DNA of 63,047 nt, counting the filler. It is 14 parts of 14 records of this genome, joined end to end, with 100 filler letters (N's around TTAATTAATTAA, not from the genome) between each part and the next. Parts side by side here need not be neighbours in the genome. Positions count along the whole stretch, not along the records: positions 57,063 to 63,047 come from SRR7504441_25887; 13 more parts are not named here. One strand, 5' to 3'. The notes below the pieces were generated by a model. It was given only the letters and a program-made list of their open reading frames with translations. It searched no databases and had not been told where the DNA came from. Below, in pieces: positions 22,191-62,457 of this stretch. Numbering within the stretch: the stretch's first letter is position 1; every line of letters starts with the position of its first letter. The translations under genes and the position numbers were made by a program.

Positions 22191-22290
22191 NNNNNNNNNN
22201 NNNNNNNNNNNNNNNNNNNNNNNNNNNNNNNNNNTTAATTAATTAANNNNNNNNNNNNNNNNNNNNNNNNNNNNNNNNNNNNNNNNNNNN

Positions 22291-25058: not shown

Positions 25059-25754
25059 CCAGCAGCTCCTGTACGCCACGGTGGACTGCAGGACCGTCAC
25101 ATTGCGCCAATCAACAGAGGTGGTTATTGAGTGTGTACTTATATAGTTCATGATTGTATAGCATAGTTTCTAGCGAATCTAGTCACTGTCACTGACTGAA
25201 TTCGGCTATGGTCTCTTGTCGACTTGTCATGTTCAAAGCCTTGCTTTTACTCGTACTCGTACGTGCTACGACGCTACAAGATTAATTATGATCGTGAACA
25301 GTGACGTTCGTGTGTAAACGAGGTCCGGGGTCATCACGGGGATGTGGTCAATTGGTTGTCAGCGTCATGCCGGCAACAGGCCGGCAAGTCGACTTGCTCA
25401 GTTCGACCTTCGAATACTAATCCGTATCACTGGTCAACCATCACTGAGTCTCTCACCTCGTTATCATGCTCGTGATCATTGCGACCGGACTCTGTTGGCA
25501 GNNNNNNNNNNNNNNNNNNNNNNNNNNNNNNNNNNNNNNNNNNNNTTAATTAATTAANNNNNNNNNNNNNNNNNNNNNNNNNNNNNNNNNNNNNNNNNNN
25601 NCGTGCAGCAGCTGACCTTGGACTGAACACAGTTCCGAAGGTCAGGAGCTGTGCACTATTGTACCGCTGTGCACTAAAATAGCTACACAAAATAGTGTAG
25701 ATCTGCGTGCGTTCCTGCTGACGGAACTTCACCGCTGCCAGGAAGACGGGACAG

Positions 25755-28949: not shown

Positions 28950-29375
28950 CGAGTGCTCCAGGCCGGCCCTTCCTCCCGACTGATTGAAAGCCGGGTTTAG
29001 AGCCATGCTCCTGCCAATCGGCTTTGCACAGCGCGCACTCCGGCTCGCACAGCAGCCATCGCGGCTCTTGAAGGACGCAATGTGACCGGTTGTGGATTGT
29101 CCACCAATGTCGAGCTGAATGAAATGCTCGATTTCTCTCTCAGTTCATTCGGCAGCTGACCTGAGATAAGAATTGTGGCTCAGATGGCTCGAAAGATAAA
29201 GGCTTTATCTTTATAGGGGAAAAAACCGCATCTCTTAACTCATCTCCTATCAAAAATGCCGAGTGCCGGAAGTTGNNNNNNNNNNNNNNNNNNNNNNNNN
29301 NNNNNNNNNNNNNNNNNNNTTAATTAATTAANNNNNNNNNNNNNNNNNNNNNNNNNNNNNNNNNNNNNNNNNNNN

Positions 29376-32300
29376 AGGAGCAGGAGTACATGCGGTTCCA
29401 CCCGGCCATAGATGATCTGTATCCAGGCCATAGAAGCGAAAAGGTACAGTTGAATTACTGGAGGACTGTGATTGGTCATTGCCCTGTGCTAGAGTTGCCG
29501 GTTGACAAACCTCGAGCAACCGGATCCACAGACAGGCGCTTGAGCTGTGTCGAGGGGGGTTCTCTCACGCCGGAGGCAGTGGCTCACTTCAGTGAGAGAT
29601 GCGCTGCACAACAGTGCACTCTAGAGGTTGGCTTGCTTGGGCTTTGGCATTTGGTCGTGGGCCTCTGGTCGCGCGCAGACGAGGTGGTGGTGGCTGTACA
29701 CCAGACTGATGCCATCAAGGCAATGCCGGTCTACACGTGTGTACAGCTTGGCTTGCATTCGAGTGTGGACGCAGTCCTCCGACAAGTCCGAGACTCGTAT
29801 GCATCAGGCCTGCAGCATACAAGTATCAAGCACCTTCAACTTGTAGAAGCATTCGAGCCTCTGGATATTCCACTGCATTCAGGGCCTTTCGCACAGGTGG
29901 CCTATTGGTTTGACAGGCGGGCCCCGAATCTACCCAGAGAGGCCGATGTTCGCTACGAGCTCACTCTCGTGTGTACGCAAATCGACCATGAAGTGGTGCG
30001 GCTGTCGATTGCATATCAATGCAGCTTGTTTCTTGAGGCAACTGTCACTGCGCTATTGCAATCCATCACACTCCATGTGGCAGGCGTCAACGCTTTGATG
30101 CCAGCTGTAGCGAGAGATCCGCCACAAGGCTTTGCCTATAGATACAAGCTGTCTGCGTATCAGTATTACTACTACACTTCATCTGCATTTGCTCAGGCTC
30201 CAGGCCGCGGTCCGATACCATATGCACACATGGTTCAGTACGTCTCGAATCTGGACGCATTGTCTCCACCACGCTTACAGAAAGCCATAAATGTTTTAGT
30301 AGGTGCCTATTATCAACTCCGAACGAGCCTACACGACAATTGGGGAGCAGTTAGTCGTAATAGCCAACTCCTCCCCGAATGGATACGTGTTCATGGCAAA
30401 TTGAAATTGTGCAAGCTAGCTGCCAGACGTGATGCACCATTTGAACAGGACGCCGCACCACTGATGCGCATTACTGTATTTCACTGTGACACAGAAACTC
30501 TGCTGATGGTGGTAGCTCACCACAGCATCGTCGACGGTCTCATGTTGCAGCATCTTGTGCAGCAGCTGCTTTGGCTTTATCACAAACCTTCTTCTGAGTT
30601 CCGCATGCCATCGCTCCATGATGGAATGCGCGTGCCTGGTGCAACTCTCAGCCCTTACCCTGATGCGGTCAGAGGAACAGAACTTCCGACCCGCAAGCTG
30701 CTTTCAAAGACTCGTGCTAATGCGCAAGCAGTTTTCGTCTTCACTGCGCCCCAAACTGAAGAGCTTGCGAGCTTTGCACGCTGTTGTGACGCGACTATGT
30801 TTCAGCTGCTTGCCACCGCGCTTTGCGTTTCGCTCAGTCAACTGCTCAAGACGACAGCAGTGGCACTGAGGGTGCCTCATGCCGCATCTGGCCAAGCTAC
30901 CACCTGGATCACCTTCCAAGCTCACCTGCTTGGCCATGAAACGTTGGCCCAGGCAGTCCAACAGACGCTATACGTACGTGGCCCGCCCATTAGGCCCAGC
31001 AGCGGCGCTCCAGTTGCCGCAAGCTACATACGACGTAAAGGCCTGCCAGAAGGGTGGACTTGGGTGCCTGATGATGTGTACCCGTCGATACATTCGGAAG
31101 GCCTCTACTGCATGTTTCTCCATAACAGATCTTCACTCTCTTTTATCTTCAGTTTTGACGCGGCAGAGATCCCAGCAGCAACGGTAGAAAGCATTGCGCG
31201 AGGCACAATAGGAGTCCTTAGACAAGGAGTGCCATTGAACACAGGCGACCTGCAAGCACCGGTGATCTACGTCGAGGATAGCGACGGTGTGCCAAGGTGC
31301 CAAGAAATATGCCAAGAAATGCACCAAGAAATGTGCCAGTACTGGCAGACTGAAGTTCAGGGCGTTATGATTGCGCGTACAGACAACCCAACCGTGCCAC
31401 TCCACCTGCAGATGGAGGGCCGTGCAAAACAGGCGCCCACTGCCGTGGCCCTTGTGTCAGGAGACCGAAACATGACCTATCATGAACTGGATAGCCGGTG
31501 CACGACGCTGGCAGCACACTTGCAGCTGCTCGGAGTACGACCAGACGTGCTTGTTGGGTTAATGCTCGACCGTGGATTCGACCTTATCGTGGGCCTCCTC
31601 GGGATCCTAAAAGCAGGTGGCGCGTACGTCCCCATGGACCCATCTTTCCCAGAAAAACGGATCGAGATGATGGTGACAGACTTACAGCTTGATGTGATGG
31701 TGACGCAATCGTGCTATTTCCGAAGCTGCATCCGATTTAACGTCATTCTGGATGCTGTGTTGGACCAACAGAATCCTGAGGTGAGCCAAGAAGTGCAATT
31801 ACACCATTTAGCTTATGTCATCTATACGAGTGGGAGTACCGGGGCGCCGAAGGGTGTTTTAGTCGAGCACCGGGGACCTGTTGGCAAGCTCGACCTCTTT
31901 ATTGACACAGGGCGCCCACAACCGATTGACTCAGCATTCACCACGAGCATTAGCTTTGATCCTCACGTGCGAGAACTGTTTGTCGCGCTATGCAGCGGGG
32001 GTGCGGTTTCGATCTATCAGAACATACTCGACGAGAGCTTGAAGGACTCAACCACTTGGTTGAATGGAATATCGTCAGCAATGGAAGAAATGGTTCTCCC
32101 AGCATCACTGCAGATTGTGACCTTCTGTGGGATGCGAGTTTCCCAAAAAGCATGGGATCGTACTAACCACGTGGCGATGCGTTGGATCCACTATGGTTGT
32201 TCTGAGTGTTCGTATTTAGGTGCAGGCGTTGGTTCTGTTGCTGGTGCAAGCCTTCCTATGCATGTCGGCAAGCCCAACTCTCACACCCTATGCTACATCA

Positions 32301-33166
32301 TGAGCAAGAGCGGCGAGCCCTGCACAGCTGGTATCGCAGGTGAGCTGTGGATTGGTGGCGATGGCATTGCACGTGGGTACCACAATCGTTCAGATCTCAC
32401 CAGTGCAAAGTTCCTTGCAGACCCCTTCGGAACAGGGCGAGTGTATAAAACTGGCGACCGGTTTAAGTGGAACGCGGATGGCACGCTAGTCTTTCTGGGG
32501 CGAGTTGACCGTCAGGTCAAGATCAGAGGCTTCAGAATAGAGCTCAGCGAGGTCGAGGCAGCTGTCATGGTGCTTGATGATACGCAGAGTGCGATTGCTA
32601 CTGCCAACGGGGACGATTTGCTCGTCCACGTTACCCCTGCGGACGTCAACACCACACAAATTCGAAGTTGCCTGGCTGAAACGGTCCCTAGCTATATGAT
32701 TCCATCTTCGGTGCACGCCATGGAAGCCTTCCCCTTGACTGCAAGTGGTAAAATCGACTACAACAATACCGCCCTGTTGGCATCAAGACCCCTCGACGCC
32801 GTTTCAGGCAAGGGATTTGCATCAACCGAGTTTGTCTGCGAAGAGCGAACTATTTCAACACAAAGCCAACATGAGACCGCCTCTCCAGAACACGCGCAAC
32901 GTGTTCTCAGCGCATTAGTTTTGCAGCACGTGAAAGATGCAACGGGGATAGATGGGTTACAACCGACCGATAATTTACTAGAGGCCGGGCTGAACTCTCT
33001 CAGTGCCGTGCGGCTTGCTGCGTCGCTGCAGATGAAGCTGGAGAACAAACCTAAACTGCCTGCAACTTTGGTGATTCAATTCCCCTCAGTGTCTGCAATT
33101 GCACAACATGTCTGCGCCACTCGAAGCAGCGTACAAGAGCAGCACGGCAGGCTGGAGCAGCAGCTG
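29376..33166 (+). CDS. Non-ribosomal peptide synthetase fragment: partial C - C - A - T, truncated at both ends, uninterrupted ORF
   Basis: C: QLNYW...LELPVDKPR and VAHHSIVDG. A: MTYHELD, LKAGGAYVPMDP, LAYVIYTSGSTGAPKG, FDPH, GELWIGGDGIARGY, YKTGD, GRVDRQVKIRGFRIEL, SGKID. T: DNLLEAGLNSLSAVRL. Confidence 0.95.
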
Positions 33167-33400
33167 NNNNNNNNNNNNNNNNNNNNNNNNNNNNNNNNNN
33201 NNNNNNNNNNTTAATTAATTAANNNNNNNNNNNNNNNNNNNNNNNNNNNNNNNNNNNNNNNNNNNNTACGAGCTCGAGTTAAGCTCGAGTCGACGTCTAC
33301 AATACTCACTAGAGCTAGATACTGTATAGGCCACTAAATGAACTGTACATGGTTTCAAACGATTTAACAATTGATAATGATATTCAAACTTGCTTCAAGG

Positions 33401-37385: not shown

Positions 37386-37542
37386 NNNNNNNNNNNNNNN
37401 NNNNNNNNNNNNNNNNNNNNNNNNNNNNNTTAATTAATTAANNNNNNNNNNNNNNNNNNNNNNNNNNNNNNNNNNNNNNNNNNNNGTCGTACCTCCAGCT
37501 GGTCTCCGGGCCTCCGCCCTCGGTTTAATAGCATTGCTTGGA

Positions 37543-41199: not shown

Positions 41200-41594
41200 T
41201 TCGGCGCAGCTTTGGCCTAAGCTTGGATTAGAGCTACCTTGAGACAATTTAGCGTTGATCAATCATAGAGATTTATACTCGTATTATATACTCGTAGTTG
41301 GGGCAGGTGAGCAACCTGCTAGGCTGGTCAGTCCTCCGGTGATTAGTGTAATATGCATGGTAACATTCATGAGTGCCCATCACCTGCGAGNNNNNNNNNN
41401 NNNNNNNNNNNNNNNNNNNNNNNNNNNNNNNNNNTTAATTAATTAANNNNNNNNNNNNNNNNNNNNNNNNNNNNNNNNNNNNNNNNNNNNACTGAGGTGG
41501 CCAATCAGCCGTTACTTTCAGTTTGCATGGCGCACCTGAACTCGCAGCGCGTCCTCAGTAGCGGCGTGTGAGCGGGCGGCGTGGGCTGGGCGAG

Positions 41595-45709: not shown

Positions 45710-46446
45710 NNNNNNNNNNNNNNNNNNNNNNNNNNNNNNNNNNNNNNNNNNNNTTAATTAATTAANNNNNNNNNNNNNNNNNNNNNNNNNNNNNNNNNNN
45801 NNNNNNNNNCAGTCGTTGCCCGATGCGAGCAGCTGTGAGTGCCATGTAGTGCATCCCCCTGAGATGTGCAGGGTGGCCTGTAGCCCGTCGTCGATTCGGC
45901 AACCTCTGTCGATCACGGGACTCAACGCGGCGACGCTGTGCTCGCCACTTTGGCGTGTGAACCTGGCACCTGCCACGCCCTCGGGTCACCGACACAGGAA
46001 CAGCATGATGCAAACGAGGATGGCAGGATCAGCCGCAGTAGCAGCAGCCCCAACCACCCCCACGAGCCGCAGTCGGCGCATCGGGCAGGGCCAACCCGCT
46101 GCGAGCGCGACCGGCCGGCCGGGCACCCCTGTTCGCGGCCAGATCCGACGATACCACGGGGGAGAGAGGTGGTGCCTCCGAGCACCCAGGGGAGGCCTCA
46201 GCAGCATCACGACAGGCACAGGAGAGCAGCAGGCCCGAAGACCAGAGGGCCGGAGCGTCGAGGGCTGCGACACTGATACGGACCCGCGCTCAGACACAGG
46301 GGGAGGTGGGCCACATGCAGCGGGGAGGCACACCTGCGGCCTCTGGGGAGGCGCGGCCTCGGGAAGCATTGAGCATGGCCATCTGCAGGGAGCTGGCGGT
46401 GTCGGCCTGGTATGGTGTCTCGAGGCAGATACATTAACTCTTCGAG

Positions 46447-50291: not shown

Positions 50292-50391
50292 NNNNNNNNN
50301 NNNNNNNNNNNNNNNNNNNNNNNNNNNNNNNNNNNTTAATTAATTAANNNNNNNNNNNNNNNNNNNNNNNNNNNNNNNNNNNNNNNNNNNN

Positions 50392-56962: not shown

Positions 56963-57158
56963 NNNNNNNNNNNNNNNNNNNNNNNNNNNNNNNNNNNNNN
57001 NNNNNNTTAATTAATTAANNNNNNNNNNNNNNNNNNNNNNNNNNNNNNNNNNNNNNNNNNNNTTATAGCTTTAGTCGAGCCTAGGAAAAATAAGTTTGGA
57101 TATCAATACTCGTAAACGAATTTAACTCTCTTATAATTACATGTATTGTTCTCACGGC

Positions 57159-60158
57159 TCATAGGAGCGCGTCGAGCACGGCTCCGACGTTGCCGTTGTG
57201 CGCATCCAGCAGCGCCCGGTTCCGGTCGGCGTCGGCAAACCCCATCTCCCGTAGCTCGTTCAGCTCGGGCTCCCAGGTCTGCAGTGGTTTGAGCGACTCG
57301 CGGATGGCGGCCTGCAGCTCCTCCTCCTCCGAGCACGTCGCGCTCGCAATGGACGGCGCGGGCAGCTGCAGCACCGGCGGCAGCGGCACGGGAGGCGGCG
57401 GCTCTTGCTGCCCGACGACTGGAGAGAACAGGATCGCGCTGATGTGTGGCCAGCAGCCCTCGGTCTGCAGCCGGAGGAGCCGCTCGCTTGCGGCGCCCGA
57501 GACGGTGAGCGTGAGCGGCTGCCGGAACCAGGCCATGGTGTCCGGCCCCCAGTTGGAGCCGCTCGTCCACTCGGAGGCCACCTCGCCGCACAGCACCCCG
57601 TCGAGCCGCAGCTGCAGCGGCCGTGGATCGGCCGATGTGTGGTGGGTGAACAGGCAGTACCGCCCGGGCTCGAGACAGACCCGGTACTCGGCCCAGCCGC
57701 CAAACCCGTCGTTGTAGCACATGTTCCGCTCGGGGCAGAACCGGTCGCCCCGGGCCGAGCTGTCTGCGAGCACCAGCAGCTTGGCACCCACCGACGCGCA
57801 AAGCCCCGTGCTCAGCCAGGAGCGCCTCTCGCCGTCTGTGAGTCCGGTCGGCGCAGTGGAGCCGGGCGCGTCGAGCAGCCCATGCAGATACTCAACGGCC
57901 AGGATCAGCGGCCGGCCCTTGCCACTGCTGCAGTCGCTGCACAGCCCCGTCTGGAGCGCCTCGGCCCGGCCGCCAAAGTGCCGCTCGCGCACCGTCTCCC
58001 GGTTCAGCCGGAACGCCACCTCGGCTCGCAGCACCTCGACGGCCGCGGTGGGCCTGGCGACCGGCCCCCCGTGCACGTCGATCCGCCGAATCCCAAACCT
58101 CTCGCCACCGCCGGCCGTCTCCAGCTCGAGCCTGACCACTCGCGTCGGAGCCGCCCAGCCCGCGACCCGCGACGAGCGGCCATTGTGCGAGCCTTCCGCG
58201 GCGGTCCGCACCGGCGTCAAGGTCGGAGCCCCGTGCTCGCCCGGGCGGCGGCCCATCACCCGCACGTTGCGGATCCCAAACAGCTTGCCGTGGTTCCAGC
58301 CGTCCGGATGCCCGTCGGCCAGCTCGATCCGGACAAACCGCGTGGGCTCGGGCCAGCCGGGGATCCCGCCGTGCCAGCCGTTGATCTCGCCGTCCCGGAA
58401 CCTCGGGACCGAGCTCGCGTCGGCCTGGGTCCGCTGCACGGTCCAGCTGCCGCCGTCGACCGATGAGGAGACGGCAATCGTGCTGGCGACCGCGAGCCCC
58501 CACCACTGGATGTGCACCGCAGTCACCCGGCACGGCTCAGGCAACTCGATCTGCAGCCAGGCCGTCTCGCGCTCGGCGTACCAGATTGTGTCGCCTGCCC
58601 CGTATCCCTCGCCGTCGGTGATCGCCCCGGCCATCTCCTCTGACTCGCTCACCTCAACCGGCGCTCCCCTGGACAGCTCGACTGGCCAGCCCAGCTCGAC
58701 CATCCGACCGCCGGCCGCGGCGAGCACTCGGTACTGGCGGGCCGGGCCGCTCTCCCAGTCGATGGTCAGGCCGCTCACCGCACAGTCCTGCCCGAGGTCT
58801 ATCTCGACCCAGCCGGCACCGGCGGTCGTGTGCCAGACCGAGTCTGAGCAGTCGACCAGGTTCTCGCACGCATACTCGAACCCCACGTCCGAGCAGCGGA
58901 CCGGCCGGCCCTTGCTGATCACCAGCCCCTCCTTCCCGAACCAGCTCGCCCGCATCGCCTCGAGCGCCCGGCCTACCCATGGCTCACAGTCGCAGCAGCT
59001 CGCTCGCACGTGCTCAACCCGCTCCTCCCACGCGCGCAGATTGAACGGGCACGCCGCGGTCGCCTCGGCCAGCAGCTCGCCCCGCCGGTCGCTCGGGCCG
59101 AGCCCGGCCGCCGTCCTGATCCGCTCGCTGAGGCTGTACTGAGCGAACTCGGCTTGGGCTTGCTCCATCAGCGGCACATTCCACACACCACAACTCTGGC
59201 CGGCCACGCCGCCGCCGTGCAGGTGCTTGCTGCTGGCCCAGCCCGAGATATCGTTGGCCAGGTACCATAGCCCGGGCCGCTTATGCACCAGCAGCGCGCA
59301 GTGCCCCGGCTGGCCCACAGGGAACGCCGGCAGCCCAAACGCCTGCGCGGCCCCCGTCGCAAAGAACGAGATCGCGCCGCACACGCCGCCGCACTCAGCG
59401 TACTCCTGCAGGCTGATATGCCCACCGTGGCCGTAGAACCCAACCGCATCATTGACGTCGTGCCCGTTCCGTTCGCTGGTGAATTTGACCATATCCCCCG
59501 GCAGCTCGACCGCCGACCCGTCCGGCTGCAGCTCGCGCGCCCGACGCAGGTCGGCGCACGCGCTCTGGGCCCAGTCGAGCTCCTGGTCGGAGCACATGCT
59601 CCGGAAGACGAACCGCAGCTGCCAGGGCATCAGCTGGTCGAAGCTGCCGAACAGCCGGCCTTCGCGGTGCCAGTCTACAAAGTTGAGGTAACGCGCCACT
59701 GGCTCCACCGGCACCCCACGGCCCTCCCGCAGCGCCTCGTTGCTGTCGAGCAGGTGCACCGGGGACGAAAACCCGAGCGCGCACCCGACCGCCAGCCTTC
59801 GCCGGAACGGGTCGTCCGTGCAGGCTGAGTCGATCTCGATCAGCCGGAGCAACAGGAGCACTGCGGCCGCCCAGCGGTCGGCCGGCGCGTCGGGGCTGAG
59901 CACCGAGCAGCTGGCGCAGTCGCCGCTCGACAGGAAGAGCTCGAGCAGCGCTCGGTTGGTGAGCAGCTGCCCGAAGCCGGGATGGTCGGCCAGCTCCAGC
60001 CGGCCCGGCCCGGGGCGGATCTGGGTGCGGTCCGGGGCCAGCTGGGCCAGCAGCTGAAACTGCAGCAGGCTGAGCATCCCGGCGTCGGTCGCCGGGTCGG
60101 ACAGCGCCGGGTCTGTCTCATGGCCCAGCCGCTCCAGCACAGACCGGATCTCCTCCAT
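57159..60158 (-). CDS. Transglutaminase/cysteine-protease-like core + F5/8C (discoidin/galactose-binding-like) domains + UIM + UBA, 999 aa, uninterrupted ORF
   Basis: GGVCGAISFF...GLPAFPVGQPGHCA...W.LAND (Cys-His-Asn/Asp); NLVD...W...WVEIDLG...LTIDWE and AITDG...WLQIELPEP...VHIQWW...SSVDGGSW (F5/8C); SEEEELQAAIRESL (UIM); LNELREMGFADADRNRALLDAHNGNVGAVLDALL (UBA). Confidence 0.8.
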   Translation of the reverse strand: MEEIRSVLERLGHETDPALSDPATDAGMLSLLQFQLLAQLAPDRTQIRPGPGRLELADHPGFGQLLTNRALLELFLSSGDCASCSVLSPDAPADRWAAAVLLLLRLIEIDSACTDDPFRRRLAVGCALGFSSPVHLLDSNEALREGRGVPVEPVARYLNFVDWHREGRLFGSFDQLMPWQLRFVFRSMCSDQELDWAQSACADLRRARELQPDGSAVELPGDMVKFTSERNGHDVNDAVGFYGHGGHISLQEYAECGGVCGAISFFATGAAQAFGLPAFPVGQPGHCALLVHKRPGLWYLANDISGWASSKHLHGGGVAGQSCGVWNVPLMEQAQAEFAQYSLSERIRTAAGLGPSDRRGELLAEATAACPFNLRAWEERVEHVRASCCDCEPWVGRALEAMRASWFGKEGLVISKGRPVRCSDVGFEYACENLVDCSDSVWHTTAGAGWVEIDLGQDCAVSGLTIDWESGPARQYRVLAAAGGRMVELGWPVELSRGAPVEVSESEEMAGAITDGEGYGAGDTIWYAERETAWLQIELPEPCRVTAVHIQWWGLAVASTIAVSSSVDGGSWTVQRTQADASSVPRFRDGEINGWHGGIPGWPEPTRFVRIELADGHPDGWNHGKLFGIRNVRVMGRRPGEHGAPTLTPVRTAAEGSHNGRSSRVAGWAAPTRVVRLELETAGGGERFGIRRIDVHGGPVARPTAAVEVLRAEVAFRLNRETVRERHFGGRAEALQTGLCSDCSSGKGRPLILAVEYLHGLLDAPGSTAPTGLTDGERRSWLSTGLCASVGAKLLVLADSSARGDRFCPERNMCYNDGFGGWAEYRVCLEPGRYCLFTHHTSADPRPLQLRLDGVLCGEVASEWTSGSNWGPDTMAWFRQPLTLTVSGAASERLLRLQTEGCWPHISAILFSPVVGQQEPPPPVPLPPVLQLPAPSIASATCSEEEELQAAIRESLKPLQTWEPELNELREMGFADADRNRALLDAHNGNVGAVLDALL

Positions 60159-61272: not shown

Positions 61273-62457
61273 CTACAATCGGCTATTGTCGTCTTCGTGG
61301 TCGTCGCATCCGTGCGGGCCGTCGCCATAGATGTCGTACCTCCTATGCGTGTGCATTGGCATGTTACTCCGTGTCTCCTTTATCACCTTGGCCGGGCCGG
61401 CTAACAGACCTCTACTGTCGGGTGATACCTCGGGGTCGATCTCAAAAGTCTTTATTCCGGTGGTCTCCCCAAGGGCAGCGATACAAGTTCCCCAAGGGTC
61501 GAAGGCCACTGCATGCCCCCACGACTGCCGCTTGTTCCCGTCGCTATTGTGCACCCCAACCTGCGCAGTTCCCACCCATCGCTCAGAGCACGCAGCAGCG
61601 CCACACCTGTGCAGCTGCAACCACGTAGCACTGTGTCTCTATTGCGCGAGCTCGGAGCAAAGTCTCCCAATGTGCCCGTCCCGTCTTGACCGCGAATGCG
61701 GATGGCATCAGCAGCAGGTCAGCCTTGTGCACGAACCGCAGCTTCTGGTACAGCTCTGGGAACCTCATGTCATAGCAAATACTGACCCCAAGTCGCCCTG
61801 CTGGGCTATCTGCAACCACAAGCTCTTCTCCTGGGAGGGCCTGCTTCGATTCGACTAATCCTACGAACGGTGCGTCGTATAAATGGATCTTCCGGTACCT
61901 GCCCTAGACCGATCGAGCCATGATCTGGCCTGTGCTGCTAGCCTTGCAACGATCTCGCCCTCAGCATCCACAACCACGTGCGTATTGTAGATCCGATCAT
62001 CCCCCGGTGGCCCCCGCTCCTGCGATCTCCGGCTCAGCGCAGGCGAACACCACTGCTGGCCCACCTGGAACCCGCCCAGCGAGAGCCACACTGCGTTCTG
62101 CCGCGCCAGCTTGCGGTACTCAGCCATCAGTGGGCCTTCCAGCGGCTCTGCAGCGGCCTGCACACTGCACTGGGGGCGCGCATCGGGGGGGAGCACCTGG
62201 GCCTCACCAGGATTGGCCCCCATGAAGGCAAAGTTCTCCGGAAAGAACACGATCCGGCAGCCGCCTGCGTCCGCGCACTAGCTGCCACCCGTTGCCAGCC
62301 GGCGGCTACCATCGATTGCTTGCCGGACGGCCGCGGCGCACCAGGCCAAATTAGCTGCCGCGTCGTTCACCTGGCACCAGCTGTGCCTCGACTGGACGAC
62401 TGCCCTCACCGCAGTCATCTGGACCAGCGCCGCCTTGCACCGGGCTGCTCCCGCCAT
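61273..62457 (-). CDS. NIT1: Nitrilase-family Nit1 (deaminated glutathione amidase), multi-exon
   Basis: AALVQMTA; catalytic E-K-C motifs FFPENF, AR|YRKIHLYD (needs GC-AG intron 61942-61899) and SICYDMRFPELY; TGRAHWETLLRARAIETQCYVVAAAQ; GHAVAFDPWG. Confidence 0.92.

Follow-up and report, generated by a model that had tools for sequence, protein, structure and literature searches.

We analysed a window of 63,047 nucleotides of DNA, made up of contigs joined end to end, and find that positions 57159..60158 of its minus strand, on the last contig, encode a protein of 999 amino acids. On balance we read this protein as a cytosolic, multi-lectin, transglutaminase (TGase)-like Cys-His cysteine hydrolase with a UIM/UBA tail that would read ubiquitin and hold the enzyme on ubiquitylated material. 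Its domain order is a helical region, a TGase-like core with the residues C260 and H286, TPR-like hairpins, a nested double discoidin domain, a β-domain, a UIM and a UBA. An earlier note on this DNA had placed the open reading frame (ORF) at these coordinates. It does lie there, on the minus strand, and matches its closest relative at E = 6.6e-268. The parts of the gene, with the basis for each in brackets, are:

57159..60158, minus strand: complete single-exon coding sequence, 999 codons plus stop (TGA at 57159-57161)
59559..60158, minus strand: residues 1-200, N-terminal all-helical region within the conserved family domain (helices of the model; relatives align from about residue 4-30)
59151..59558, minus strand: residues 201-336, predicted TGase-like catalytic core (fold matches, hhalign)
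59238..59390, minus strand: residues 257-307, catalytic motif block (GGVCG 257-261, GQPGHCA 282-288, W298-YLA-N302-D303-ISGW)
59379-59381, 59301-59303, 59253-59255 and 59250-59252, minus strand: putative catalytic codons C260, H286, N302 and D303, respectively
58929..59150, minus strand: residues 337-410, TPR-like helical hairpins (VIA-align Z 7-8.2 to TPR proteins)
58662..58865, minus strand: residues 432-499, N-terminal half of the outer discoidin (F5/8C) domain (single discoidin domains over model 18..283)
58233..58661, minus strand: residues 500-642, inner complete discoidin (F5/8C) domain inserted in the outer one (Pfam, CBM32 and fold matches)
58062..58232, minus strand: residues 643-699, C-terminal half of the outer discoidin domain (about 45 single-domain discoidin/CBM32 matches)
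57765..58061, minus strand: residues 700-798, helical linker of no recognised family (DSSP helices of low predicted local distance difference test score, pLDDT; conserved in two close relatives, P0002 and P0004)
57384..57764, minus strand: residues 799-925, β-domain, possibly CBM6/CBM35-like as a lead only (low-confidence model strands)
57333..57383, minus strand: residues 926-942, proline-rich linker (translation; low pLDDT)
57288..57332, minus strand: residues 943-957, predicted UIM, EEEELQAAIRESL (UIM_2 0.001, UIM 0.0046, tail alone)
57162..57272, minus strand: residues 963-999, predicted UBA, Dsk2/ubiquilin-like (phmmer, Pfam, three helices)

Residues 1–430 match 616 representative proteins (50%-identity clusters) at E ≤ 1e-3, 196 of them at ≤ 1e-10 and 42 at ≤ 1e-30, and neither Pfam nor NCBIfam gave a match in this N-terminal region. 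The helical part (residues 1–200) carries an LLQ-x-QLL motif, and its residues W179, R182 and W196 are nearly invariant. The GGVCG...QPGH...WYLAND core singled out in the earlier note is present at residues 257–261, 283–286 and 298–303. Among 65 aligned relatives C260 and H286 are each retained in 64 (the 65th has a gap), Q283 in 64, C287 in 59, N302 in 60 and D303 in 42. A set of 72 more distant relatives keeps the Cys in 65, the His in 67, the Gln in 67, the Asn in 43 and the Asp following it in 24. We modeled the N-terminal region with AlphaFold from the 65-sequence alignment (pLDDT 85.8, predicted template modeling score 0.87). In the model C260 opens a helix (260–273), H286 opens a strand (286–294) and N302 and D303 directly follow the strand 297–301. 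As modeled, this layout of Cys, His and third residue is the canonical papain/transglutaminase topology.

The structure search of the core that had been suggested earlier gave a divided answer. Foldseek against the PDB found nothing at E ≤ 1e-3 (E > 0.04); its top rows were designed helical proteins and the weak list was rich in transglutaminase-fold proteins. VIA-align returned TGase-fold neighbors, the best being 3isr, a putative cysteine protease (Z 7.0 and 6.9, model 80..330, 147–148 aligned residues, root-mean-square deviation (rmsd) 4.7). Further matches to residues 80–336 were FXIIIa (Z 6.3), 3kd4 (Z 6.2) and TG2 (Z 6.1), as well as TG3, TglA and TgpA. Of the bacterial putative cysteine proteases 3isr (Cytophaga hutchinsonii) and 3kd4 (BDI_1141, Parabacteroides distasonis), the former is the best fold neighbor of residues 80–330; by their own titles the function of both is unknown. 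At profile level, hhalign was used to compare 64 family cores with 12 genuine Transglut_core domains, taken from five of the bacterial genomes in which relatives occur. The stretch GGVCG...AFGVPA pairs with the g-C...GIPaR nucleophile helix over 36 columns (P 2.6e-4), with C260 at the position of the nucleophile Cys. Extending this alignment greedily, at low confidence, sets H286 against the TGase His and W298 against the conserved Trp. Transglut_core itself is matched by one of the 65 relatives (6.9e-6). It is absent from the 25 families listed for the 72 further relatives, and distant relatives from Akkermansia and Luteolibacter, tried as a transitive link, did not match it either. The family profile, compared with the sequences of solved structures, matched lectin and TPR parts only and gave no match for the core. 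Taken together, fold matches, site conservation, topology, the hhalign pairing and the one direct Transglut_core match place the N-terminal core, as predicted from sequence and model, in a distinct family of the transglutaminase-like Cys-His superfamily that is unmodeled by Pfam and NCBIfam. The transglutaminase/papain-like fold with a conserved Cys-His pair, as anticipated in the earlier note, is in agreement with the 3isr match, the retention of C260 and H286 in 64 of 65 relatives each and the hhalign P-value.

Like 3isr, 3kd4 and Transglut_core, the core has its predicted nucleophile Cys at the N-terminus of a helix and the His on the following strand, and the Cys-helix block aligns at profile level. 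It differs from them in the about 200 additional conserved helical residues that precede it and in the TPR-like hairpins that follow. Pfam TPR_14 is matched by one relative, and language-model neighbors include Verrucomicrobiota clusters with Transglut_core and TPR_14, which we take as a lead only. The protein further has an invariant GQPGHCA motif, and an Asn where transglutaminases have Asp, according to a low-confidence alignment, in which the TGase Asp, located by its distance to the conserved Trp, falls on N302 and not on D303. The clean Asp that had been expected as third catalytic residue did not emerge (N302 in 60 of 65 relatives vs D303 in 42), and the third residue of the family is probably an Asn or a variable residue. 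We regard it as decidedly unlikely that the protein is a true transglutaminase, cross-linking or deamidating, or else a catalytically silent scaffold between glycans and ubiquitin. FXIIIa, TG2 and TG3 do fill most of the fold-match list, but the best match, 3isr, is a putative protease and no cross-linker. Some TGase-like proteins are non-enzymatic, and protein 4.2 is among the fold matches; that Cys, His and Gln hardly vary in 137 relatives, however, argues for catalysis.

The fold matches also include PNGases (mouse 2f4o, Z 5.2, model 80..335, 142 aligned, rmsd 4.9; yeast 3esw, Z 4.7). The protein might then be a functional analogue of cytosolic PNGase that deglycosylates ubiquitylated substrates of endoplasmic-reticulum-associated degradation (ERAD), with the discoidin and β-domains in the role of PAW and the UIM/UBA replacing PUB and the Rad23 contact. 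We consider this unlikely. The spacings from C260 to H286 (26) and from H286 to D303 (17) are presumably similar to those of yeast PNGase, and the UBA is of the Dsk2/ubiquilin shuttle-factor type. In the fold comparison, on the other hand, PNGases rank below 3isr, 3kd4 and the true transglutaminases. The lectins of the family are presumably of galactose, GalNAc (N-acetylgalactosamine), mucin and chitin types and not mannose/chitobiose binders; for the secreted bacterial relatives a PNGase role is not evident. The NGLY1-like logic speaks for the analogy: passages of PMC9102325 describe NGLY1/PNGase as a TGase-like core with a C-terminal β-sandwich that binds glycans and a link to the ubiquitin-proteasome system, and our protein likewise combines a TGase-like Cys-His core, β-sandwich glycan binders and a ubiquitin link. 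According to the same passages the PNGase core requires zinc-binding CxxC motifs, and fungal and plant PNGases also occur without PUB and PAW. The only CxxC strings in residues 1–430, C81–C84 and C388–C391, are not conserved in the family (C81 in 11 and C84 in 1 of 65 relatives; 388–391 mostly gaps or other residues). PUB, PAW and Rad4-type or Rad23-binding domains were not among the six Pfam families found at E ≤ 1, which alone is no exclusion of the PNGase family. The ubiquitin link would be direct here, through UIM and UBA, and runs through p97 or Rad23 in NGLY1; the lectins are discoidin domains, and the two proteins are not orthologous. Judged from sequence, the protein is no member of the PNGase family, although its overall logic is closest to NGLY1. 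A placement in the PNGase family, to which the earlier note drew a parallel, was not upheld, given the lack of zinc CxxC, PUB and PAW and a Z of 5.2 for mouse PNGase against 6.9–7.0 for 3isr.

The family is widespread in bacteria, and the earlier description of the catalytic domain as bacterial-looking holds. We located 59 loci in bacterial and archaeal species genomes, mostly in Planctomycetota, but also in Verrucomicrobiota, six Bacillaceae, Eubacterium multiforme and a Fimbriimonadia metagenome-assembled genome (MAG). A tblastn search of plasmids gave 55 records, 49 from Bacillus and 6 from Enterococcus. The source names of ten family clusters read 'hypothetical protein' with one exception, 'chitin-binding protein'; one cluster derives from a marine eukaryote transcriptome set. 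For domains and tails we inspected 152 proteins in all, including the best 150 of the 616 representatives. The partners in the first set of 65 relatives were F5/8C-type domains (29), SPRY (2), galectin (2) and one each of NPCBM, Mucin_bdg, ricin-B, CBM5/12 and fn3. In the second set of 72 they were F5/8C (14), Mucin_bdg (7), NPCBM (3), Cry1Aa-domain-IV-like (3) and CBM6/35 (1), together with choline-binding repeats, a KxYKxGKxW signal and CWB2. A crude hydrophobicity test found a signal-like N-terminus in 61 of the 152 inspected proteins. By their predicted features, the bacterial proteins of the family are as a rule secreted or anchored to the wall, and they carry a wide variety of fused glycan-binding modules. 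The theme of the family thus appears to be a conserved Cys-His domain that is delivered to glycoconjugates, mostly outside bacterial cells.

Plasmid proteins of the Bacillus cereus group annotated as 'putative mucin/carbohydrate-binding domain-containing protein' share the catalytic-type domain (29–31% identity over 61–76% of residues 1–430), followed by glycan binders (Mucin_bdg or F5/8C). They are secreted and have no ubiquitin readers, and the annotation names the binding module only. In B. thuringiensis the member is a standalone gene on the plasmids NZ_CP097258.1 (128017-144865, L061) and NZ_CP009349.1 (L060). On one B. thuringiensis plasmid its neighbors are a DUF3472 protein, another 'mucin/carbohydrate-binding' protein and a phosphatidylinositol-specific phospholipase C (PI-PLC), next to a Tn3 transposase. 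The Bacillus plasmid members and the Cry1Aa-domain-IV-like fusions look like secreted host-interaction factors. Distant members in Akkermansia-like and Luteolibacter MAGs (L057:3932-7045, L057:9477-10991; L052:5825-7048) are flanked by DUF6288/PDZ/HEAT proteins and a SASA (sialate O-acetylesterase) gene. Bacterial gene neighborhoods gave no consistent functional clue; the neighbors were SASA esterase, DUF1501, DUF6288, DUF3472 and PI-PLC. We calculated a FastTree phylogeny from 172 core-domain rows, most of them without a taxon label, after dropping 39 of 211 rows with less than 75% coverage of the core profile (among them P0002, P0005 and P0007). The 999-residue protein pairs with P0004 (node value 100); the group to which this pair belongs is unresolved and neighbors a Planctomycetota clade (47 rows, 98), with Bacillota and Verrucomicrobiota in the other half of the tree. 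As most rows lack a taxon label, the tree points to no donor and to no direction of transfer.

The middle part of the protein is built up from lectin domains. Pfam F5_F8_type_C (PF00754) matches with E = 9.3e-12 and 45.6 bits (cut-off 28.2), best over residues 508–577, and PF22633 with 42 bits (cut-off 27.8). Discoidin-type chitosan-binding modules match profile positions 419–477, and a hexosaminidase CBM32 matches the inner domain at 9.5e-5. The model of residues 415–999 was built from 4 sequences with a mean pLDDT of 49.9, and we used only its discoidin matches and tail helices. A superposition with 4zxe_A resulted in Z 11.6 and an rmsd of 2.5 (105 of 132 aligned), and about 45 further discoidin/CBM32 rows followed. 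Single domains of ~130 residues stretch over residues 18..283 of this model, while other lectin domains match the inner part, 77..228 (3cqo, Z 9.1; 7pmo, Z 7.6). For this reason the model supports a discoidin domain (~500–642) nested in another one (~432–499 plus 643–699). The nested or tandem F5/8C-like domains of the earlier note are therefore to be read as nested rather than tandem (4zxe_A over 18..283, 3cqo over the inner 77..226). A local F5/8C profile from two bacterial domains gave insignificant matches only and, with 9 domain rows, was too narrow. Scanned alone, residues 643–699, 700–798 and ~799–925 had no Pfam match. The β-domain (~799–925) is shared only with P0002 and P0004. That it is a further carbohydrate-binding module, as previously suggested, is a lead and no finding: the model has strands, and language-model neighbors are CBM_6/CBM_35 (CBM_35_2) clusters at 0.88–0.90; neither Pfam nor the solved-structure sequences gave a match.

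The tail contains the putative ubiquitin readers. Scanned alone, residues 925–999 gave the Pfam E-values 2.9e-5 (UBA_NBR1_C), 0.001 (UIM_2), 0.0046 (UIM) and 0.0093 (UBA). In a phmmer search against solved structures, the Dsk2 UBA entries 2bwe, 2bwb, 1wr1 and 4un2, two of which carry ubiquitin-complex codes, matched at 6.1e-5 to 1.3e-4 over residues 32–75 of the 75-residue tail with the M-G-F residues aligned; the UBAs of ubiquilin and NBR1 were weaker. The model has one helix for the UIM (944–955) and three for the UBA (963–971, 977–986 and 991–998). The block-mean pLDDT (10 residues) is 79–88 over ~965–999, the only confident stretch of the 415–999 model. The tail also contains the string EEEE-L-QA-A-IRE-S, which fits what we take to be the UIM pattern of an acidic run followed by hydrophobic-x-x-Ala-x-x-x-Ser. 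The UIM and the terminal UBA of NBR1/ubiquilin type recognised in the earlier note are thus recovered, with Pfam scores below the cut-offs. Ubiquilin/Dsk2, NBR1 and UIM-bearing receptors likewise have a C-terminal UBA with an MGF loop, and in our protein the UIM stands directly before the UBA. Ubiquilin, Dsk2 and NBR1 are, however, adaptors without enzyme or lectin, whereas here the predicted readers sit on an enzyme-lectin body of 925 residues.

Close relatives are few, among them P0002 (57–58% identical) and P0004 (985 amino acids, 43–45% identical). A word-index search with the whole protein found only two, a search with the C-terminal region only P0002; a search with residues 780–999 and two scans of metagenome contigs yielded no relative. 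At the position of the UIM/UBA tail, after the same β-domain, P0002 has a zinc finger. Its matches among solved structures are Npl4 (4.9e-6) and TAB3 (8.9e-6), then TAB2, TRABID, Vps36, HOIP and HOIL-1L, with the Ran-binding Nup153 ranking lower. The finger retains a Thr-Phe motif and a hydrophobic residue within the second CxxC, features that define ubiquitin-binding NZFs according to a passage of PMC11372445, and is predicted to be a ubiquitin-binding NZF of the Npl4/TAB2 type. That sister lineages have unrelated ubiquitin readers in the same place speaks for selection of ubiquitin binding. The readers themselves are a recent, local addition to the chassis.

A Cys-His papain-like core combined with UIM and UBA would also suit a deubiquitinase (DUB) or ubiquitin-directed protease that cuts isopeptide bonds of ubiquitin or ubiquitin-like proteins, guided by its UIM and UBA. 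Several DUB families combine a papain-like core with UIM/UBA, and the conserved Q283 (64 of 65) could, speculatively, serve an oxyanion hole. We nevertheless hold this option, also raised in the earlier note, to be highly improbable, and no evidence favoring it was found. In their overwhelming majority, members of the catalytic family are bacterial proteins that are fused to lectins and secreted or bound to the wall, with no access to ubiquitin; the fold neighbors are TGase-like with no DUB fold among the matches; and the tail is absent from almost all relatives. The Pfam DUB models did not match the protein, an absence that carries no evidential weight.

The ORF is a genuine gene and no chance GC-rich reading frame, as judged from the match to P0002 (E = 6.6e-268) and from the 616 representative proteins matching residues 1–430. 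An in-frame TAA lies two codons 5' of the ATG, and between the stop codon and the end of the contig there are 96 nt of AT-rich sequence (GC 0.32). The GC content at third codon positions (GC3) is 0.88–0.92 across all segments and 0.892 in the tail. Catalytic part, lectins and ubiquitin-type tail thus share one codon style, which counts against a chimeric join. Neither a signal peptide nor a transmembrane segment was detected in the protein (maximum Kyte-Doolittle 19-residue mean 1.47), in line with the earlier note. Its N-terminal 10-residue hydrophobicity maximum is 1.59, compared with 2.8 in a secreted bacterial relative. This, together with UIM and UBA as cytosolic or nuclear modules, suggests a cytosolic protein.

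Public contigs over the gene are short pieces, and the stretches without cover are uninformative. A contig from an oligo-dT RNA library matches 57134-57356 with 1 mismatch, including UIM, UBA, stop codon and 25 nt of 3' untranslated region. Over 59940-60119 a metatranscriptome contig of 188 nt (depth 35.7) is identical to the window and then continues with 8 unmatched letters. The point of divergence, 60119-60120, lies 39 nt downstream of the ATG. A splice site at 60119 was rejected because an AG acceptor is absent there; the divergence may stem from strain variation, from an artefact at the end of the contig or from an alternative 5' end. A diverged contig piece aligns at 58023-58289. No joints were seen among the public contigs aligned to the gene, and there is no sign of introns. 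The RNA contigs are weak evidence of expression. Public runs matching the window do so at shares ≤ 0.11 and are all marine or aquatic metagenomes and metatranscriptomes.

Only the last contig (57063-63047) is physically linked to the gene. Directly upstream, on the same contig and strand, lies what looks like a nitrilase/Nit-type gene with at least one intron:

61273-61620, minus strand: piece of a CN_hydrolase ORF (Pfam profile positions 195-249, 1.1e-4)
61861-62250, minus strand: piece of a CN_hydrolase ORF (Pfam profile positions 36-107, 1e-6)

Since this neighbor is split into at least two exons, the contig is eukaryotic nuclear DNA. The host of the 999-residue protein is a marine microbial eukaryote.

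Based on these results we suggest how the protein may work. The lectin domains would dock the enzyme on a glycoconjugate of galactose/GalNAc type. C260 at the N-terminus of its helix, activated by H286, would then attack an amide or peptide bond in or beside the glycosylated substrate, with N302 or D303 orienting H286. Candidate bonds are the amide between Asn and N-acetylglucosamine, a peptide bond or another amide. UIM and UBA would hold the enzyme on ubiquitylated material in the cytosol, so that ubiquitin-marked glycoproteins or glycan-bearing structures could be processed. Retro-translocated glycoproteins, ruptured endomembranes and invaders are candidate substrates.

Several observations weigh against this account, beginning with the core. 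PF01841 (Transglut_core) gave no match at E ≤ 1 for the whole protein and none at E ≤ 10 for residues 202–336 alone, and PF01841 searches of the five bacterial genomes that hold relatives did not return those relatives. All fold matches of the core are modest (Z 5–7), and a Z below 8 can reflect a common arrangement alone. The hhalign probability is only 42%, and the pairing of H286 with the TGase His appears only in the low-confidence extension. The third triad residue varies (N302 in 60 of 65 and 43 of 72 relatives, D303 in 42 of 65 and 24 of 72), and the sugar specificity is assumed from the habit of the family. For the tail, the scores lie under the cut-offs, both alone (UBA_NBR1_C 24.3 bits vs 27, UBA 16.2 vs 22.4, UIM_2 19.3 and UIM 17.1 vs 21) and in the scan of the whole protein, where UBA_NBR1_C reaches 19.2 and UBA 11.8 bits and the UIM is below its cut-off as well. 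No independent contig joins the β-domain to the tail; positions 57357-57421 (proline-rich linker) are uncovered. P0004 has the same chassis and ends directly after the last β-domain, without a ubiquitin tail. A survey of the family with and without the UBA, as proposed in the earlier note, found the UIM/UBA tail in 1 of the 152 inspected proteins and an NZF in 1 of 152 by motif search, and the ubiquitin link is no property of the family.

These last points bear on a regulatory role of the tail, in which UIM and UBA would govern the enzyme's own ubiquitylation, stability or localisation and the substrates would be unrelated to ubiquitin. UIM-dependent self-ubiquitylation and UBA-dependent stabilisation are known behaviors of these modules, the tail is dispensable within the clade, as the chassis of P0004 demonstrates, and 150 of 152 inspected relatives are without such a module. 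Two different readers at the same position are more easily explained by selection for binding ubiquitin elsewhere, though regulation is still compatible with them, and we consider a purely regulatory tail rather unlikely. We thus keep to a lectin-bearing cysteine hydrolase held on ubiquitylated material as our preferred reading.

The remainder of the window consists of other contigs. Thirteen spacers of N44 + TTAATTAATTAA + N44 split it into 14 contigs of 3.1–6.6 kb with a GC content of 0.505–0.657, a spread that may reflect contigs from more than one organism. Since the contigs are joined, gene order across the spacers is meaningless. ORFs with ankyrin, RhoGEF/PH, NRPS-like (non-ribosomal peptide synthetase), EF-hand and NHL features were rejected as gene neighbors, as all lie on other contigs. 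The spacers are at:

4503-4602, 7772-7871, 12183-12282, 15787-15886, 22191-22290, 25502-25601 and 29276-29375
33167-33266, 37386-37485, 41391-41490, 45710-45809, 50292-50391 and 56963-57062

On a separate contig, an ORF of 1274 amino acids (29390-33214, plus strand) contains Condensation, AMP-binding and PP-binding domains, an NRPS-like single module in a seemingly eukaryotic assembly. Another ORF on a separate contig (943 amino acids, 4842-7673, minus strand) has weak matches to a bacterial alpha-L-rhamnosidase six-hairpin domain (8.4e-5) and C-terminal domain (0.0032), both below the cut-offs.

We found no description of this family, TGase-like with discoidin or mucin-binding domains, or of its architecture in a full-text literature search, which did not extend to subscription journals and supplements, and none in Pfam or NCBIfam. 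This agrees with the earlier note, whose author did not recognise the architecture. Functionally the protein would most resemble a TGase-like cysteine hydrolase to which CBMs have been added. From its sequence features it fits best as a new family of the transglutaminase-like superfamily, with a new architecture. The catalytic domain represents a sizeable unnamed family that is annotated by its binding modules only. Because almost every inspected member pairs the Cys-His-Gln site with a glycan binder, it is a candidate for a new class of glycoconjugate-directed cysteine hydrolases, and testable members exist in cultured bacteria.

To our knowledge, the known couplings of ubiquitin to cytosolic glycans use separate proteins, namely F-box proteins that bind sugars, PNGase together with p97/Rad23, and galectins acting with autophagy receptors. 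In our protein, enzyme, lectins and predicted ubiquitin readers form one polypeptide, and a sister lineage reached the same design via a different reader. This suggests ubiquitin-guided glycan processing as an unstudied coupling, which is directly testable with one recombinant protein. It is also a case of domain accretion, in which the chassis of a secreted enzyme of bacterial type became a eukaryotic protein of the cytosol. Going further, and only tentatively, the protein may belong to a hitherto unrecognised class of cytosolic glycan-surveillance enzymes: lectin-guided, bacterial-type Cys-His amidases or peptidases that were independently fitted with UIM and UBA or with an NZF in related protists and that act on ubiquitin-marked glycoconjugates. 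If so, such an enzyme would be a non-orthologous replacement or partner of PNGase in the disposal of glycoproteins, or an enzyme-receptor for glycans that ruptured vacuoles or invading cells expose. The catalytic domain would then define a new family of secreted, glycan-targeted cysteine hydrolases in Planctomycetota, in Verrucomicrobiota, including Akkermansia-like genomes, and on Bacillus plasmids.

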